Shown here in pieces: positions 6,798-13,199 of a stretch of DNA of 64,000 nt. How positions within the stretch are numbered: the first letter of the stretch is position 1; each line of letters begins with the position of its first letter. The stretch is from NCBI GenBank assembly GCA_016197205.1, contig JACPWG010000096.1:29902-93901 (forward strand), given 5' to 3'. The DNA is from Planctomycetota bacterium. GTDB taxonomy: Bacteria > Planctomycetota > MHYJ01 > WSZJ01 > JACPWG01. The notes beneath the pieces are model-generated. The model was given only the letters and a program-made list of their open reading frames with translations. It made no database searches and was not told where the DNA came from. The position numbers were made by a program, and so were the translations under genes.

Positions 6798-9344
6798 CTA
6801 CGCCTTCTTCGGGATCCTCATCGAGTAGAACGACCGCCATACGAAGATCAGCGCAATCGCCAGGATCACCCCGCCGATCAAGACGGTGTAGTCCGCGCCG
6901 CCGCTGGTGTGCGCCTCGTGCTTCATCTCCAGCGCGATCTCCACGGCGAGCAACCCGAACAAGGTCGAGAACTTGATGATCGGGTTCAGCGCCACGGACG
7001 ACGTATCCTTGAACGGATCGCCCACCGTGTCGCCTACCACCGTCGCCGCGTGCAACGGCGTCCCCTTCTCCCTCAAATCCACTTCCACCAACTTCTTCGC
7101 GTTGTCCCATGACCCGCCCGCATTCGCCATGTAGATCGCCTGGAACAGCCCGAACACCGCGATCGAGATCAGGTACGCGACGAAGAAGTTCGGATCAAAG
7201 AACGCGAACGCCAGCGTGATCGACATCAGGACGATGAAGATGTTCCACATGCCCTTCTGGGCGTACTGCGTGCAGATGCGGACGACCGTCTTCGAGTCCT
7301 CGAGGTCGGCCTCTTTCTTCGTGAGGTCCATGTTCTTCTTGATGTATTCGACCGCGCTGTACGCGCCCGTCGTCACAGCCTGCATCGACGCGCCGCAGAA
7401 CCAGTAGACCACCGCGCCGCCGCAGATGAAGCCCAAGAGCACCGGCGCATCCGTCAAGCTCAGATGCAAGATGCCGGCTTTTCCGAGGATCAGGATGATC
7501 GAGAAGATCATCGTCGTCGCGCCGGCGACCGCCGTGGCGATCAGCACGGGCTTCGCCGTGGCCTTGAACGTGTTCCCCGCCGAATCGTTCGATTCGAGAT
7601 AGTGCTTGCCCAGCGTGAAATCGGGCGTGAAGCCGAAGTCTCTCTTGATCTCGTCGACGATGCCCGGGAGGTGCTCGGTCTGCGCCAGCTCGAATACCGA
7701 CTGCGCATTGTCCGTCACCGGACCGTAGCTGTCCACCGCGATGGTCACCGGTCCCATGCACAGGAAGCCGAAGGCCACGAGGCCGAACGCGAAGATCGAC
7801 CCGACGCCCACCAGCGGCGCGTTTTTGTACAGCTCCACCATCATGACCGCGTCCAGGCCCTGGAGGCTGACGAAATACGCCCCGCCCATCAGGCCCGCGA
7901 TCAAGAGGCCCATCCAGAAGGCGCTGAAGTTGCCGGCCACGATGCCGGAGAGGATGGTGAGCGACGCGCCCCCTTCGCGCGAGGCCGTCACGATCTCCTT
8001 CACGTGCTTCGAGTGCGAGCTCGTGAAGACCTTCGTGAATTCGGGGATCAGCACGGCCGCGAGCGTGCCGCAACTGATGATCGAGGCGAGTTGCCACCAC
8101 AATTCCGGCAGGGGCTTTCCGCCGACCGAGAGGTCGCGTATCAGCAGCCAGCTCATGCCGAACGAAGTCGAGATGCACAGCATCGACGCAATCCATATCA
8201 GGCGCGTGAGCGGCTGCTCGAAATCGAATTCCTTCAGACCCTTGTACTTCTTCTCGGAGATGTACTGGTTGATGAAGTAGGCCGCGCCGGACATGAAGTC
8301 CATCAGGAAGCGCATCGCGAAGATCCAGACGATCAGTTTCGCCTGGATGTCGACATAGGAAGGCAAGCTTGCGACGTACTCCGGCGTCCCTCGAGAGAAC
8401 GGCGGGACGACGGCGAGCGTGATGAAGGAGATGAGCGCGACGCCGGTCACGCCGTACGTTTCGAAGCCGTCGGCGGTCGGGCCGACCGAGTCGCCCGCGT
8501 TGTCGCCGGTGCAGTCCGCGATGACGCCGGGGTTGCGCGGGTCGTCTTCCTTGACGTTGAAGACGATCTTCATCAGGTCGGAGCCGATGTCGGCGATCTT
8601 CGTGAAGATGCCGCCCGCGATGCGCAGGGCCGACGCGCCGAGCGACTCGCCGATCGCGAAGCCGAGGAAGCAGATGCCGACGATCTCACGCGGCACGAAG
8701 AGCAGGATGATGACCATCATCACGAGCTCAAGCGAGATCAGGAAGAGCCCGACCGACATGCCGGCGCGAAGCGGAATGTTGACCACGTCCCAAGGCTCGC
8801 AGCGGAGGGCGGCGAACGCCGTACGGCAGTTTGCGTAGGTGTTGACACGGATGCCGTACCAGGCCACCGCGTAAGAGCCGAGCATGCCGACCACGGAGAA
8901 GAACAGGACGAGAAGCAAGGTCGAGAGGCTCTTCGCTTGCAGCCCCATGAAGTAGTACGACATGGCGCTGCCGATCAAGACGAACAGCATCACGAGGAAC
9001 TTGCCCTGCTGGATGAGGTAGGTCTTGCAGGTCTGGTAGATGATCTCGGAGACGTTCAGCATGGACTTGTGGCACGGCAGCACGTGGATCTGCTTGCGCA
9101 GATAGAGGCTGATTCCGAGTGTGCCGCAGATGACCCATGCGCCGTAGAAAAGCAGGTTCCAGGCGCTGATCCCGAACAGGCTGTCGAAGTGTCCCTTATC
9201 CAGGTCCGGGATCGCCAGGTCCGCTTCGCTCGCACGGGCCACGCCCGCGGAGAGCAACCAGACGAAGGCGAAAACCGGAATCGGTAACAGACGCTTGAGG
9301 GCCGCAGCCGCCGAGGCGAGCCGCGCGGGGCCGGTTCGCTCCAT
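6798..9344 (-). CDS. hppA: Membrane-bound proton-translocating inorganic pyrophosphatase (H+-PPase).
   Basis: About 16 transmembrane segments. Conserved H+-PPase motifs are present: GGG..TKAADVGADL.GK.E, DNVGDNVGD and EALEMKHEAHTSGG. ATG at 9344 has a GGAGG Shine-Dalgarno sequence. The upstream part of the long ORF is not protein-like. Confidence 0.9.
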   Translation of the reverse strand: MERTGPARLASAAAALKRLLPIPVFAFVWLLSAGVARASEADLAIPDLDKGHFDSLFGISAWNLLFYGAWVICGTLGISLYLRKQIHVLPCHKSMLNVSEIIYQTCKTYLIQQGKFLVMLFVLIGSAMSYYFMGLQAKSLSTLLLVLFFSVVGMLGSYAVAWYGIRVNTYANCRTAFAALRCEPWDVVNIPLRAGMSVGLFLISLELVMMVIILLFVPREIVGICFLGFAIGESLGASALRIAGGIFTKIADIGSDLMKIVFNVKEDDPRNPGVIADCTGDNAGDSVGPTADGFETYGVTGVALISFITLAVVPPFSRGTPEYVASLPSYVDIQAKLIVWIFAMRFLMDFMSGAAYFINQYISEKKYKGLKEFDFEQPLTRLIWIASMLCISTSFGMSWLLIRDLSVGGKPLPELWWQLASIISCGTLAAVLIPEFTKVFTSSHSKHVKEIVTASREGGASLTILSGIVAGNFSAFWMGLLIAGLMGGAYFVSLQGLDAVMMVELYKNAPLVGVGSIFAFGLVAFGFLCMGPVTIAVDSYGPVTDNAQSVFELAQTEHLPGIVDEIKRDFGFTPDFTLGKHYLESNDSAGNTFKATAKPVLIATAVAGATTMIFSIILILGKAGILHLSLTDAPVLLGFICGGAVVYWFCGASMQAVTTGAYSAVEYIKKNMDLTKKEADLEDSKTVVRICTQYAQKGMWNIFIVLMSITLAFAFFDPNFFVAYLISIAVFGLFQAIYMANAGGSWDNAKKLVEVDLREKGTPLHAATVVGDTVGDPFKDTSSVALNPIIKFSTLFGLLAVEIALEMKHEAHTSGGADYTVLIGGVILAIALIFVWRSFYSMRIPKKA

Positions 9345-9831
9345 GTTTCCTCCACTCCTTGAAGGCCGGGCGGGAAAAAGGGCAGGGTCCAAAGCTCGCC
9401 CCATCGAAGGAAGGCTCGCCGCGCCGTTGGAAGGGGGGACGCGGGCGCCGGTCCGCACCCGGACGCCAGTCGTTCGCAGCGGGGCCTTCAGGCCCTGGGT
9501 GAGCTTTGAACCATGCAGAAAAGCACAATTCCGCGAGCGGCGGATTGTATCCGCGCCGTGGGGGCGGGGCAACGAAAAACAACGCCCTTCGAGACCTCCG
9601 TCGCACCTCCTGCCTTGCATCCCCGGCGCGTTGACGCTATCCTAGTGGCCCGTTGACCCGTGCGGTCCCACTTCTGGATGGCCGGGGCCCCGTTCGTAGT
9701 TCCGCCTTCAGGCGGACCGTCTGGCCGCACCGCTATCGACTGCGGAGAGATCGGTCTGGGGGTGAGTGAGAACTTCGTCAACGGGCCTAAAACGCGGGTG
9801 GTCGCGAGCCGAGGCGGAAGGCTTGCGCAAA

Positions 9832-11328
9832 ATGGAAGTTATTCCCGGAGGCGGGCTCGCCGCCGGCCCAGAGGAAAGGAGCAGCTTGGTGTCGCAGAGT
9901 CCGAGCGGAACGTTCCCGGGCACGGAGCCCCCGGCCGGGGCCAAGGGCTTCGCCGTGGCCCTGGCGCGACTCCTCGACGACAGCGCCATGGGCGTGCTCG
10001 CCCTGCTCGCGCTCAGCCTCGCCCTCGTGCCCGTTTTCTTCCATCCGGACGCCCAGGCCCAACGGGACCTGGACCTCGTCGAGTGGCTCATCGTAGCGCT
10101 CTTCGCGACGGAGTACGTGGTCCATTGGCGCCTCGCGCCGAGCCGGAGGGCCTTCCTGACGAATCGCTGGCGCCTCCTCGACCTGGGCATCATCCTGGTC
10201 GCCGTCGCGTCCCTGCTGCCCCACGCGTGGGGGGGACTGCGGGCCTCCCCCGCCCTGCGTCTGCTCCAGGTCGTGCGCGCCTTCCTGCTCGGCACCCGCA
10301 GCGGCGGCGTGATGATCCGGCAGCCGAGCCGGCGCTCGACCGCGGGCGCGCGCGGTCCGCTGCAGGTCTCCGTCCTCGGCGAGGCGGACAAGCTCGCGCC
10401 TCGGCCGGCGGAATGGGAGGATTTTCTGCACTGGTCGCGCCGGCCGGGGGAGGAGTGGGTGCACCTCACCGGTCTCGACCACGAGCGCCTCGCGGAGGTG
10501 GCTCGCTTCGCCGGGCTTTCGCTCGAGCTGCTCGAGTCGGTCTTCGTGACCGCGAGCTACCCACGGATCAAGGCTTCCGGCCGGTTCTCGATCCTCTTCG
10601 TGTGGCTGCCGTCGCTCCGTAAGGAGGGGCCCAGCGGCATCGAGCGCCACGCGCTCCTGCTGCTTTTGAGCGAACGCGAATTGCTCAGCCTTACCCACCG
10701 CCCGACGGACCTCCAGCAGAAGCTCGTGGGAGCGGCGGAGGCGCTGCGCGTCCCCGGAGGCGCCTTCGCGACACGCATGGCGTACGCGGCGCTCAAGAAA
10801 GTCGTGCAACGGTACGAAGACGTGGCGGGCCAGTTCGAGCAGCAGGTCCGGGCGCTGGAGGACGTCCCCGTCCGGGACAGCCGGCCGGAGTTCCTGGAGC
10901 GCGCCTTTCTGCTGAAGCGGGAGATGTCCGCGGTGGAGAGCGACCTCTGGCGTCTGCACGGGATCCTGGAGGCGCTCGCGGAAGGACGCGCGACGCTCAA
11001 GGGAGGGCGCGAGGAGGACGCGGACTTCGTGCGCATCCTGGCCGCGGAGGCGGAGTACCTGCACGAGACCGTGGAAAACCTGCGGGAGGGGCTGCTCTCG
11101 CTCCTCGACCTGCACCTGAACGTCGTCTCGTTCGAGATGAACAAGGTGATGCGCGTACTCGCCGTGGTGAGCGTGCTGGGCCTCTTCCCCTCGGTCGTGG
11201 GGGGCATCCTGGGCATGAACGTCCAGGGCTCGCCGTGGGCGGTGACGCTGCCGCAGGTGGTGTACGGCGTGGGGACCGGGCTGGCCGTTTGCCTCTACTT
11301 CTTCTATGTGAAGGGGTGGCTGCGCTAG
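9832..11328 (+). CDS. Fusion protein: an N-terminal four-helix voltage-sensor-like domain (S1-S4 of the ion_trans family) joined to a C-terminal CorA-type Mg2+/Co2+ transporter domain.
   Basis: The N-terminal motifs LFATEYVVHWR...NRWRLLDLGIILVAV match the voltage-sensor S2 (FxxE(Y)xxR) and S3 (N/R-W-x-x-D). A helix with spaced Arg residues (LRLLQVVRAFLLGTR) follows. The C-terminal half has a CorA coiled-coil and two transmembrane segments with GILGMNV (the GMN motif). ATG at 9832 is chosen; an in-frame GTG at 9766 is an alternative start. Confidence 0.65.
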   Translation: MEVIPGGGLAAGPEERSSLVSQSPSGTFPGTEPPAGAKGFAVALARLLDDSAMGVLALLALSLALVPVFFHPDAQAQRDLDLVEWLIVALFATEYVVHWRLAPSRRAFLTNRWRLLDLGIILVAVASLLPHAWGGLRASPALRLLQVVRAFLLGTRSGGVMIRQPSRRSTAGARGPLQVSVLGEADKLAPRPAEWEDFLHWSRRPGEEWVHLTGLDHERLAEVARFAGLSLELLESVFVTASYPRIKASGRFSILFVWLPSLRKEGPSGIERHALLLLLSERELLSLTHRPTDLQQKLVGAAEALRVPGGAFATRMAYAALKKVVQRYEDVAGQFEQQVRALEDVPVRDSRPEFLERAFLLKREMSAVESDLWRLHGILEALAEGRATLKGGREEDADFVRILAAEAEYLHETVENLREGLLSLLDLHLNVVSFEMNKVMRVLAVVSVLGLFPSVVGGILGMNVQGSPWAVTLPQVVYGVGTGLAVCLYFFYVKGWLR

Positions 11329-11385: not shown

Positions 11386-11610
11386 GTGCCGGCGTGGGCA
11401 CGGCAGCGCCGTGCCCCTACGGCCAGGAGCACGCGGTGTGGCTCGACCCGCGGCCGCATCCGGTAGGGGCACAGCGTCGCCGTGCCCGCGTGAGCGGTCC
11501 GCGCCTCCACGCGGCCGTCGAACGCGTAGGGGCACGGCGCTGCCGTGCCCTCGGCTACGATGGATGCTCTCAATCGGCGGCCAACGGGTAGGGGCACGGC
11601 GTTGCGGTGC
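11386..11610. repeat. Tandem array of four 25-bp hairpin-forming palindromic repeats (GTAGGGGCACGGCGCTGCCGTGCCC) separated by unique 37-42-bp spacers. It is REP/BIME-like; the first copy is inverted.
   Basis: Copies are at about 11386, 11453, 11516 and 11578. The core has the 9-bp stem GGGCACGGC/GCCGTGCCC. Confidence 0.6.
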
Positions 11611-11616
11611 CCTCGA

Positions 11617-12276
11617 CTACGGCCGGCGCCGCCACATGGGGAAGTCGATTCCGGCCAGCCGATTGAGGGCGATCGCCTCGAGCGCGAGCAGAGAGAGCGA
11701 GGCCTGCATGACCAGGAGGTGGACGGGCTGCCGGACGACCCCCAGCGAAATGATCAGGGTCGTTGCGCCCGCGGGGGGGTGGGGGACGCCGAGGAGGAGC
11801 TGGAGGGCGCCGGTGGCCGCGAGCGAGAGCGCGGCGGCGAAAACGCGGGGGCCGTCCACGCCGCTCTGGTACGCGGGGGGGGCGTCGGCCAGGCCGGTCG
11901 CGAGAAGGGCGCCGTAGCCGCAGAGGATGCCGACGGCGTGCCCGAGGAGCGCATTGCGCGGGCTCGCGGCCGGGAGGTTCGGCGTGGAGAAAAAGAGGAT
12001 CGCGGTCGGGCCGAGGGAGGGGAAGAGGAAGGGCAGCTTCGCGAAGTGCGCGATCGCGGCCAGGGTCGCGAGGGTCAGGAAGCCGCTCAGGAAAAAAAAG
12101 GCGGCCCGTACGCGCGGCTCCGGGTAGCGGGCCAGCCACCACGCCAGCCGGAGCCGCGAGGTCGCAGGCGTCACGGCGGCCGCGCCCGTTCCGCCGGTCG
12201 CACTTCCCACCACGCTTCCCGATCCGGCGGCGCCGCCTCCTCCTCCGCTGCCCGGGTCCGGGTTGGTCGTCGTCAT
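11617..12276 (-). CDS. HPP-family integral membrane protein.
   Basis: The motif GVPHPPAGATTLII is present together with four transmembrane segments. Its start overlaps the stop of the upstream response-regulator gene. Confidence 0.7.
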   Translation of the reverse strand: MTTTNPDPGSGGGGGAAGSGSVVGSATGGTGAAAVTPATSRLRLAWWLARYPEPRVRAAFFFLSGFLTLATLAAIAHFAKLPFLFPSLGPTAILFFSTPNLPAASPRNALLGHAVGILCGYGALLATGLADAPPAYQSGVDGPRVFAAALSLAATGALQLLLGVPHPPAGATTLIISLGVVRQPVHLLVMQASLSLLALEAIALNRLAGIDFPMWRRRP

Positions 12277-13199
12277 ACGATCATCGAGTCCATCAGGGAG
12301 CGCTCTTTCGACGACAAAAGCGACTGCGCCACGGTCGAATAGAGCGCATTCGAAGCGTGCGAGGCGAGGAGCGACAGCACCTGTCGCGAGAGCGTGTCCC
12401 GCCCCCCCCCCGCGAGATAGAGCCAGCCGAAGCCCAGGTCCCTGTGCAGCGTGACCGGCACGAGGAGCCCGTCGCCGAACGCCCCCCCCTCCCGCAGGGC
12501 CGGCGCGGTCGGGTCCTCCGCGACCCGCGCCACGACGGCCGCGGCCGCCGCCGCGCCCTTCGCCGGGTCGGGGTCCGTGGCCAGATGCAGCACCCGCCGG
12601 CGCGGGTTCCCCTGCTCCTCGAACGTCTGCAGGTGCAGCACCGCGAGCGGGGTCGGGCAGAGCGTCACCGCCGTCGTGAGCACGCGTTGGAGCGCCGCCT
12701 CGAGCGGTTCGAACGAGCGAAGCGACAGCACCGACTCGTGGAGCAGGCTCAGGAACCCGCGATGCCGCTCCAGCTCCACCAGCTCCTCGAAGGCCTTGAG
12801 AGCGGTGCGCGTCGCGGCATAAAGCCGGCTCGTCGTCAGCTCGGCTTTCGGCAGATACCCGTCGATGTCGTATTCATCAATGGTCTTTTTTTCTGGCGCA
12901 GAGCCCGGCTGCCCGGTCCTCAGCAGGATTCGCACGAACCGGTTCCCCACCTCCTCCCGGATCGCGCGGCAGGCGTCGAGCCCGGCGCTGGAGGTCTCCA
13001 TCACGACGTCGAGCAGGATGACGGCCGTGTCGGGCCGCGCGCGTACGGCCTCGAGCGCCTCCTTGCCGGACGAGGCGGTCGCGAATTCGACCCCCCGGCC
13101 GTGGTACGTGACCCCCTTCAGGCTCATGCGCGTGATGGCGTGCACGTCCGGTTCGTCGTCCACGATCAGGATGCGGTGCTTCTCGGGGAGTTGCATCAT
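12273..13199 (-). CDS. Response regulator with a receiver domain and a DUF3369-like C-terminal domain.
   Basis: The receiver motifs ILIVDDEPDV, LLDVVM and D-x-x-K are present. The start is MMQLPEKHRILIVDD. A 4-nt overlap links it to the downstream HPP gene. Confidence 0.75.
   Translation of the reverse strand: MMQLPEKHRILIVDDEPDVHAITRMSLKGVTYHGRGVEFATASSGKEALEAVRARPDTAVILLDVVMETSSAGLDACRAIREEVGNRFVRILLRTGQPGSAPEKKTIDEYDIDGYLPKAELTTSRLYAATRTALKAFEELVELERHRGFLSLLHESVLSLRSFEPLEAALQRVLTTAVTLCPTPLAVLHLQTFEEQGNPRRRVLHLATDPDPAKGAAAAAAVVARVAEDPTAPALREGGAFGDGLLVPVTLHRDLGFGWLYLAGGGRDTLSRQVLSLLASHASNALYSTVAQSLLSSKERSLMDSMIV

Follow-up and report, generated by a model that had tools for sequence, protein, structure and literature searches.

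The window analyzed here, 64,000 nucleotides from a Planctomycetota bacterium (GenBank assembly GCA_016197205.1, contig JACPWG010000096.1, positions 29,902 to 93,901), contains a gene at 9832-11328 on the forward strand whose product joins an S1-S4 voltage-sensor domain (VSD) to a CorA divalent-cation channel. Translation of the window gave a single stop-free open reading frame (ORF) of 498 aa plus stop, and the VSD, a linker, and the CorA channel are all encoded in this one frame. Both modules are textbook, but their combination is not. Sequence profiles, motif conservation, and a predicted structure support the identity of the two domains, and we judge it slightly better than an even bet that the VSD imposes voltage gating on Mg2+ flux.

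A voltage-sensor domain joined to a CorA channel

The Pfam family PF00520 (Ion_trans) matched residues 55-159 (E 1.6e-10, 41 bits, cutoff 25) over profile positions 8-114 of 241, so that only the S1-S4 half of the family is represented. A VSD profile (A3), compiled from 27 N-terminal domains of diverse sequence, was run against every sequence in the PDB and matched Cav3.2 (all four repeats, E 3.9e-32), Nav1.7 (1e-26), Kv4.2 (8.5e-11), and the bacterial NavRh (1.6e-10). These alignments place the F-x-x-E-Y of the family opposite the channel S2 FxxE and N-P-W-R-x-x-D opposite the S3 xWNxxD. A first-pass annotation, made from the letters alone, had pointed to these S2 and S3 motifs, and we located them as LFATEYVVH (F91-x-x-E94-Y95-x-x-H98) and NRWRLLD (N111-R-W113-R114-L-L-D117). 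Among 120 homologues, F91 is conserved in 118 and E94 in 116, whereas in S3 the counts are 119 for D117, 118 for W113, and 116 for R114. The protein of the window possesses the four-helix S1-S4 fold and a gating-charge transfer center with an aromatic and an acidic residue in S2 and an acidic residue in S3. An S5-P-loop-S6 pore was not found, as the Pfam match ends at S4 and neither a hydropathy scan nor the AlphaFold2 (AF2) model has a hydrophobic helix between residue 159 and the first CorA transmembrane (TM) helix at ∼436. The same annotation had considered that the N-terminal helices might score as a generic four-TM bundle; with the Pfam and PDB profile matches and the motif conservation, they score as a voltage sensor. 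By profile and model, residues ∼48-159 are a bona fide S1-S4 VSD without an S5-S6 pore. This identity is settled by the sequence profile together with motif conservation, since the fold evidence by itself provides a small margin.

The S4 helix requires a distinction between the family and the window copy. Across the 120 homologues the consensus is R137...R143-x-x-R146-x-x-R149...R156...R163, with R143 and R146 each conserved in 117 sequences and R149 and R156 each in 119. In register with repeat II of Cav3.2, R137 corresponds to R1, P140 occupies the R2 slot, R143 corresponds to R3, position 146 falls in the K4 slot, and R149 corresponds to R5. The window sequence reads R137-ASPAL-R143-LL-Q146-VV-R149-AFLLGT-R156. 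The S4-like helix with periodic arginines described in the first-pass annotation (RASPALRLLQVVRAFLLGTR, R137 to R156) is therefore present, but its arginines are spaced by 6, 6, and 7 residues rather than by 3, and Gln occupies position 146; the classic RxxRxxR pattern is, as judged from the alignment, a feature of the family and not of this copy. The window protein is alone among the 120 homologues compared in having Gln146, encoded by CAG (10267-10269), which is one transition away from CGG. Gln146 may be real, a gating charge lost in this lineage, or it may stem from a consensus error in the metagenome-assembled genome (MAG) that, according to the source name of the identical NCBI entry, is the origin of the protein. 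The window copy is an atypical family member in other respects as well, with Arg in place of Pro at 112 and further non-consensus residues, and its nearest relative is just 52% identical.

The C-terminal part of the protein matched Pfam PF01544 (CorA) over residues 209-490 (E 2.4e-32, 112.8 bits, cutoff 27). A phmmer search aligned residues 205-497 with CorA of Thermotoga maritima (TmCorA; E 1e-14), and the top Foldseek matches of the AF2 model were all TmCorA (E 1e-13, TM-score on the target 0.63-0.71). The GMN motif (461-463) is present in 120 of 120 close homologues, and the pore residues N437, M440, and L443 correspond by alignment to TmCorA N288, M291, and L294. The Pfam match, the fold, and the motif bear out the earlier assignment of a CorA domain with a coiled coil, two TM helices, and GMN. 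In contrast to these matches, the NCBIfam equivalog model TIGR00383 (corA) scored 86.9 bits, below its cutoff of 200.75, and for that reason the domain is, by profile score, a member of a distinct subfamily and not a canonical housekeeping CorA orthologue.

Hydropathy and the AF2 model (full length, predicted local distance difference test score (pLDDT) 85, predicted TM-score (pTM) 0.73) both yielded the 4+2 arrangement of TM helices that had been anticipated. The S2-S3 loop is basic (five K/R and no D/E) and the S1-S2 loop is acidic, consistent with an N-in/C-in orientation. Such loop charges fit the usual N-in VSD, whose S4 ends on the cytoplasmic side, and this is where the N-terminal domain of CorA must be.

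The coding region probably starts at GTG 9889 rather than at ATG 9832, the start that had been assumed at first. Only a weak purine stretch precedes the ATG. The GTG is preceded by AAAGGAG, it is the start of the identical NCBI protein P0001 (479 aa, annotated "ion transporter", from a Planctomycetota MAG), and it is equivalent to alignment positions 19-20, where the N-termini of 120 homologues mostly lie. The choice of start leaves the architecture unaffected, and the sensor whole, because S1 begins only at residue 48. The features of the gene and its neighbors are collected in Table 1.

Table 1. Positions in the window of the VSD-CorA gene, its parts, and the adjacent genes
Feature	Position	Strand	Basis
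Whole ORF, 498 aa plus stop	9832-11328	+	Stop-free translation; Ion_trans and CorA both above Pfam gathering cutoffs; identical protein P0001
Probable true start: Shine-Dalgarno-like AAAGGAG (9875-9881), 7-nt spacer, GTG (9889-9891); 479-aa product	9875-9891	+	Sequence; start of P0001; homologue N-termini
S1 helix, residues 48-70; conserved L48, G54, F55, L56, A57, L63, P67, F70	9973-10041	+	AF2 helix 50-70, pLDDT > 90; conservation
S2 helix, residues 74-101; charge-transfer-center motif F91-x-x-E94-Y95	10051-10134	+	Conservation; alignment to S2 of Cav3.2 repeats
S2-S3 turn and S3 helix, residues 105-128; F108...N-x-W113-R114-x-x-D117	10144-10215	+	Conservation; "pWnllD" S3 signature in Cav3 alignments
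S4 helix, residues 137-159; R137, R143, Q146, R149, R156	10240-10308	+	Sequence; Cav3.2 register; AF2 helix 140-159, pLDDT 61-76
Post-S4 segment and linker, residues 160-177; conserved G159, R163, G175-P176 nearby	10309-10362	+	Conservation; pLDDT < 50 at 163-170
CorA cytoplasmic domain, residues 178-435; N-terminal alpha/beta domain and long stalk helix	10363-11136	+	Pfam, phmmer, Foldseek, AF2
Pore helix TM1, residues 436-460, then G461-M462-N463 (11212-11220)	11137-11220	+	GMN conservation; mapping to TmCorA
TM2, residues 473-493, and C-terminal tail K494-G-W-L-R498	11248-11325	+	AF2 helix 473-493; K494, G495, W496, L497, R498 conserved
H+-translocating pyrophosphatase gene, upstream, divergent	6798-9620	-	
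HPP-family membrane protein gene, downstream, convergent	11617-12276	-	
Response-regulator gene, downstream of VSD-CorA	12273-13199	-	

The fusion in bacterial and archaeal relatives

The first-pass annotation had recognized that absence of the fusion from orthologues would point to an assembly chimera; we found it in about 190 relatives from several bacterial phyla and from archaea. A word-indexed protein search returned 173 matches, and all but two of the best 120, for which domain content was given, are proteins of 447-539 aa with both Pfam domains; the exceptions, P0058 (465 aa) and P0112 (350 aa), carry PF01544 only. With the N-terminal 200 aa as query, HMMER was run exhaustively over 1.84 billion cluster representatives (233 matches). 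The full-length proteins among the best 150 were almost all VSD-CorA, the matches in general were mainly VSD-CorA proteins or pieces of such proteins, and pore-bearing channels (6-TM K+-type, two-repeat, and 24-TM) entered only at E ∼1e-9 or weaker. Four short proteins (P0163, P0177, P0225, and P0228, ∼260 aa) match the S1-S4 half of Ion_trans alone, neither CorA nor a pore domain being detected in them, and in such S1-S4-only proteins the sensor is sometimes preceded by an N-terminal region of ∼100 aa. They may be truncated gene calls or additional pore-less prokaryotic voltage-sensor proteins.

When one genome was scanned for each GTDB species, 58 loci were identified. The bacterial hosts are Planctomycetota, Verrucomicrobiota (Opitutaceae, Limisphaerales), Gammaproteobacteria, Burkholderiales, Victivallales, and Moduliflexus, and the archaeal hosts (Methanocellales, Methanomassiliicoccaceae, and Methanoregula) belong to three euryarchaeal orders; a cultured host is the gammaproteobacterium Aliiglaciecola litoralis JCM 15896. 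Family hidden Markov models detected both domains in 21 of 24 translated loci. Two of the other three, from Bathyarchaeia (L060 and L062), have the CorA part only, and one from Acidobacteriota (L039) gave partial matches. The two bathyarchaeial proteins (∼320 aa, 24% identity over residues 203-497) are the closest VSD-less CorA relatives and, on this similarity, are candidates for the CorA lineage that gave rise to the fusion.

The charge-transfer residues and the S4 arginines are retained even in members from Methanocellales and Gammaproteobacteria at 30% identity. All distant members possess the S2 F-x-x-E, and the S3 Asp is replaced (by Tyr) only in L047 and L056 of the Methanoregula group. 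Most distant members keep the S4 R-x-x-R-x-x-R at 143-149. The Methanomassiliicoccaceae protein (L043) has R143 and R146 and lacks Arg at position 149, and Aliiglaciecola has Lys at position 137. In Methanoregula and its relatives (L045, L047, L053, L055, and L056), S4 appears shifted outward (R-x-x-R-x-x-R-x-x-Q-x-x-Q), so that positions 137, 140, and 143 are Arg and positions 146 and 149 are Gln; judging from this pattern, these sensors may operate over a different voltage range or be degenerate. Variation of another kind was observed in the channel half, where five loci (L027 and L029 from Methanocellales, L033 from Victivallales, L044 from Moduliflexus, and L046 from UASB14) have GEN or GQN in place of GMN while keeping the VSD motifs, which suggests subclades with different cation selectivity.

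The two halves of the protein have diverged together: across 190 members of full length, VSD identity and CorA-domain identity, computed pair by pair, are correlated (r = 0.91), with mean values of 43% for the VSD and 41% for the channel domain. These values fit one old fusion whose two halves would since have evolved together, each under purifying selection. A chimeric assembly, or a gene pair fused by a frameshift in the MAG, could in principle mimic this architecture, and the MAG source of the window, together with a Q146 that is peculiar to this copy and conceivably an error of the consensus, is what such an artifact might leave. Against it stand the same domain order at similar length in ∼190 independent full-length sequences, including that of the cultured A. 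litoralis JCM 15896 and others on contigs of > 1 Mb, and the co-divergence of VSD and CorA. These observations reduce the probability of an artifact to almost nothing, and we rejected it.

Possible voltage gating of Mg2+ flux

We propose that the gene encodes a single inner-membrane protein of 479-498 aa with six TM helices, which would assemble as a pentamer as do other CorA proteins, with one central Mg2+/Co2+ pore capped by GMN and five peripheral voltage sensors. The membrane potential would move the S4 arginines across the F91/E94/D117 charge-transfer center, and this movement would be transmitted to the closed-open equilibrium of CorA, either through the conserved post-S4 segment (L-G-x-R156-A-S-G-V-x-V-R163) and a tether of fixed length to the N-terminal domain or through direct packing of the sensor on TM2. 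Electrophoretic uptake of Mg2+ would thereby be matched to its driving force in a feed-forward manner. Pentameric assembly, Mg2+/Co2+ conduction, and voltage dependence are all inferred from knowledge of the families and from sequence, and the polarity of gating (hyperpolarization versus depolarization) cannot be predicted from it.

Two properties of the region between the domains are those expected of a mechanical coupler. The distance from R149 to P176 is 28-29 residues in 119 of the 120 homologues, and 27 in the remaining one, even as the sequence varies, and the basic interfacial segment right after S4 is highly conserved (G154, R156, G159, and R163). The linker between S4 and the phosphatase of Ci-VSP offers a comparison for such a tether. 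Canonical CorA is closed by cytoplasmic Mg2+ bound between neighboring N-terminal domains. As Mg2+ leaves these inter-subunit sites, the cytoplasmic N-terminal domains rearrange and the five-fold symmetry is lost (3jcf, 3jcg, 3jch; PMC12933068). In VSD-CorA, each sensor is tethered to the very domain whose rearrangement gates the canonical channel.

A second hint of coupling lies in the Mg2+ sensor itself. In TmCorA, the M1 regulatory site is made up of D89 and D253, and the D253K substitution abolishes closure at high internal Mg2+ (PMC12933068). In an alignment of ∼20% identity, D89 falls opposite S236 (S, A, or T in the family) and D253 opposite I402 (R, D, E, and others in the family); D175 aligns with K322. 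The acidic residues of the cytoplasmic Mg2+ sensor are thus not conserved in the VSD-CorA family, which we regard as weak evidence, both because of the low identity of this alignment and because the same loss is seen in the VSD-less proteins of Bathyarchaeia.

Several points count against voltage gating by the VSD. The loss of D89 and D253 in those closest relatives, just described, weakens the argument from a lost Mg2+ sensor. Gln146 removes one central S4 charge, and the sensor of the window copy may be weaker or otherwise changed. In the AF2 model, which is of a monomer, S4 and the linker are the least confident parts (pLDDT 46-76), so that it reveals no coupling interface. Finally, we know of no VSD that gates a pentameric non-P-loop pore, and hence of no mechanistic precedent.

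The S1-S4 bundle might instead be a structural or sensory appendage without a role in potential gating. It might anchor the protein in the membrane, assist assembly, or respond to lipid, pH, or a ligand such as a metal. The S1-S4 domains of transient receptor potential (TRP) channels and of Zn2+-regulated TMEM266 are models for such a function. We hold this to be unlikely, though deserving of more weight than the other alternatives, since the S2 Phe, S2 Glu, S3 Asp, and S4 RxxRxxR are more than 95% conserved across very deep divergence and matter only for charge translocation, and since the profile is nearest to the voltage-gated Cav, Nav, and Kv channels rather than to TRP. Another proposal is that the VSD itself conducts, as an Hv1-like proton pore or through an omega (gating-pore) leak, and so supplies a counter-ion flux for the Mg2+ that passes through CorA. 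Pore-less VSDs are able to conduct, as Hv1 does, and a gating pore can arise when an S4 arginine is lost, so that Q146 at the central arginine position of the window protein would agree with this idea. It is nonetheless very unlikely: the S4 arginines are intact in 117 of 120 relatives, and a 2023 review states that there is no Hv-type channel in prokaryotes (PMC10377628). In addition, the middle of S1 lacks an acidic residue where Hv1 carries its selectivity Asp112 (PMC3840923); positions 51-70 are hydrophobic or small in 120 of 120 sequences. An Hv1-type proton channel is likewise not supported, given this absence of a mid-S1 acidic residue from these sequences and the lack of Trp in S4, a conserved S4 Trp being used as an Hv1 criterion (PMC10377628). 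With these alternatives weighed, voltage gating of the CorA pore by the VSD is the reading that we favor.

So far, the VSD has been known to control pores of the tetrameric P-loop type, a phosphatase, a proton pathway within the sensor, and one eukaryotic exchanger. In VSD-CorA, the sensor has a new kind of effector and CorA a new kind of regulatory module, and we put it at about even chances that these proteins are the first voltage-gated Mg2+ channels and that in them a VSD for the first time controls a pore that is pentameric and not of the P-loop type. A protein of this architecture was not described in the full-text literature searched, although absence is no proof as most subscription-journal articles lie outside the coverage, and the phrase "voltage-gated magnesium channel" had 0 occurrences in 8 million texts. 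The initial remark that this is not a textbook architecture is in agreement with this result and with PMC10620092, according to which SLC9C1 is the sole transporter known to be under the control of voltage-sensing domains. Public database entries already bear both Pfam labels under the names "ion transporter" or "CorA family divalent cation transporter", so the architecture is visible to anyone looking.

The membrane potential drives Mg2+ into the cell through CorA, and a voltage feed-forward therefore makes physiological sense. If the proposal is true, prokaryotes couple Mg2+ uptake directly to membrane potential, which would provide a molecular link between this potential and Mg2+ homeostasis; S1-S4 would be, in Bacteria and Archaea, a regulatory module that can be moved between proteins, independent of the eukaryotic VSP, Hv1, and SLC9C1; and the connection of a sensor to a Mg2+ channel with five-fold symmetry would pose a new problem of electromechanical coupling. 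It would also contradict the published generalization that prokaryotic voltage sensors always occur with an S5-S6 pore (PMC10377628). The hypothesis is directly testable because the family is compact (∼470 aa) and widespread, with at least one cultured host (A. litoralis), and because CorA is tractable by two-electrode voltage clamp and cryo-EM (PMC12933068).

Genomic setting and comparison with known systems

The VSD-CorA gene stands alone on the forward strand between oppositely oriented genes. The longest ORF of the upstream H+-pyrophosphatase gene extends ∼170 codons ahead of its Pfam match, so that translation probably begins at a later codon; on the minus strand, a match to a sigma-70-like promoter is found at 9572-9544. 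Downstream, the HPP-family and response-regulator genes overlap by 4 nt (12273-12276) and for this reason are probably one operon; the C-terminal half of the response regulator (∼180 aa) is uncharacterized. In Opitutus sp. ER46 (L001, 6398-7591), a response regulator with an HD_5 domain is likewise found directly downstream of the VSD-CorA gene, in convergent orientation. The occurrence of a response regulator beside VSD-CorA in both genomes is probably a coincidence, since three other neighborhoods are without one. No conserved operon partner was found among four relatives (Opitutus, two other MAGs, and a 1-Mb contig), whose neighboring genes differ. A CorA effector of a defense system was also considered and rejected, given that there is no PADLOC match, that no CRISPR or defense genes are nearby, and that the neighborhood is not conserved.

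The convergent intergenic region between the VSD-CorA stop codon and the HPP gene contains, at 11389-11612, four GC-rich palindromes of ∼28 nt (GTAGGGGCACGGC-nnn-GCCGTGCCC) spaced by 71, 63, and 62 nt. These are the sole copies in the 64-kb window, where 0.03 would be expected by chance. They look like repetitive extragenic palindromic (REP) or bacterial interspersed mosaic element (BIME) sequences, or stacked terminator hairpins, and not like a CRISPR array, as the copies are just 71-79% identical.

Compared with TmCorA, the VSD-CorA protein shares the alpha/beta domain, the stalk helix, the two C-terminal TM helices, the GMN motif, and equivalents of N288, M291, and L294, and its basic W-L tail is the counterpart of the KKKKWL motif of CorA (described in PMC12933068). 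It differs in carrying an N-terminal VSD and linker of ∼175 additional residues, in its ∼20% identity, and in the lack of conservation of the M1/M2 Mg2+-sensor acidic residues D89, D253, and D175. With the sensors of Kv, Nav/BacNav, and Cav channels it has in common the S1-S4 bundle, the center formed by the S2 F-x-x-E and the S3 Asp, the S3 N-x-W-x-x-D, and, in the family though only in part in the window copy, S4 arginines at every third residue. Unlike those six-TM channels, it lacks the S4-S5 linker helix and the S5-P-S6 pore, its S4 charges are fewer (3-4) with Pro at the R2 slot, and the sensor is attached to a protein expected, by analogy with CorA, to be pentameric rather than tetrameric.

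Uncoupled, pore-less VSDs have been treated as eukaryotic (PMC10377628). In contrast to the eukaryotic Ci-VSP, Hv1, TMEM266, and SLC9C1, the VSD-CorA proteins have prokaryotic hosts, and the predicted effector, an ion channel, belongs to an unrelated superfamily. The CorA effectors associated with type III CRISPR systems, which are activated by SAM-AMP (PMC10600005), show that the CorA scaffold can take a regulatory input other than Mg2+. VSD-CorA differs from them in having neither CRISPR neighbors nor a PADLOC match, and it keeps the GMN motif and the pore residues as in the CorA proteins that function in transport.

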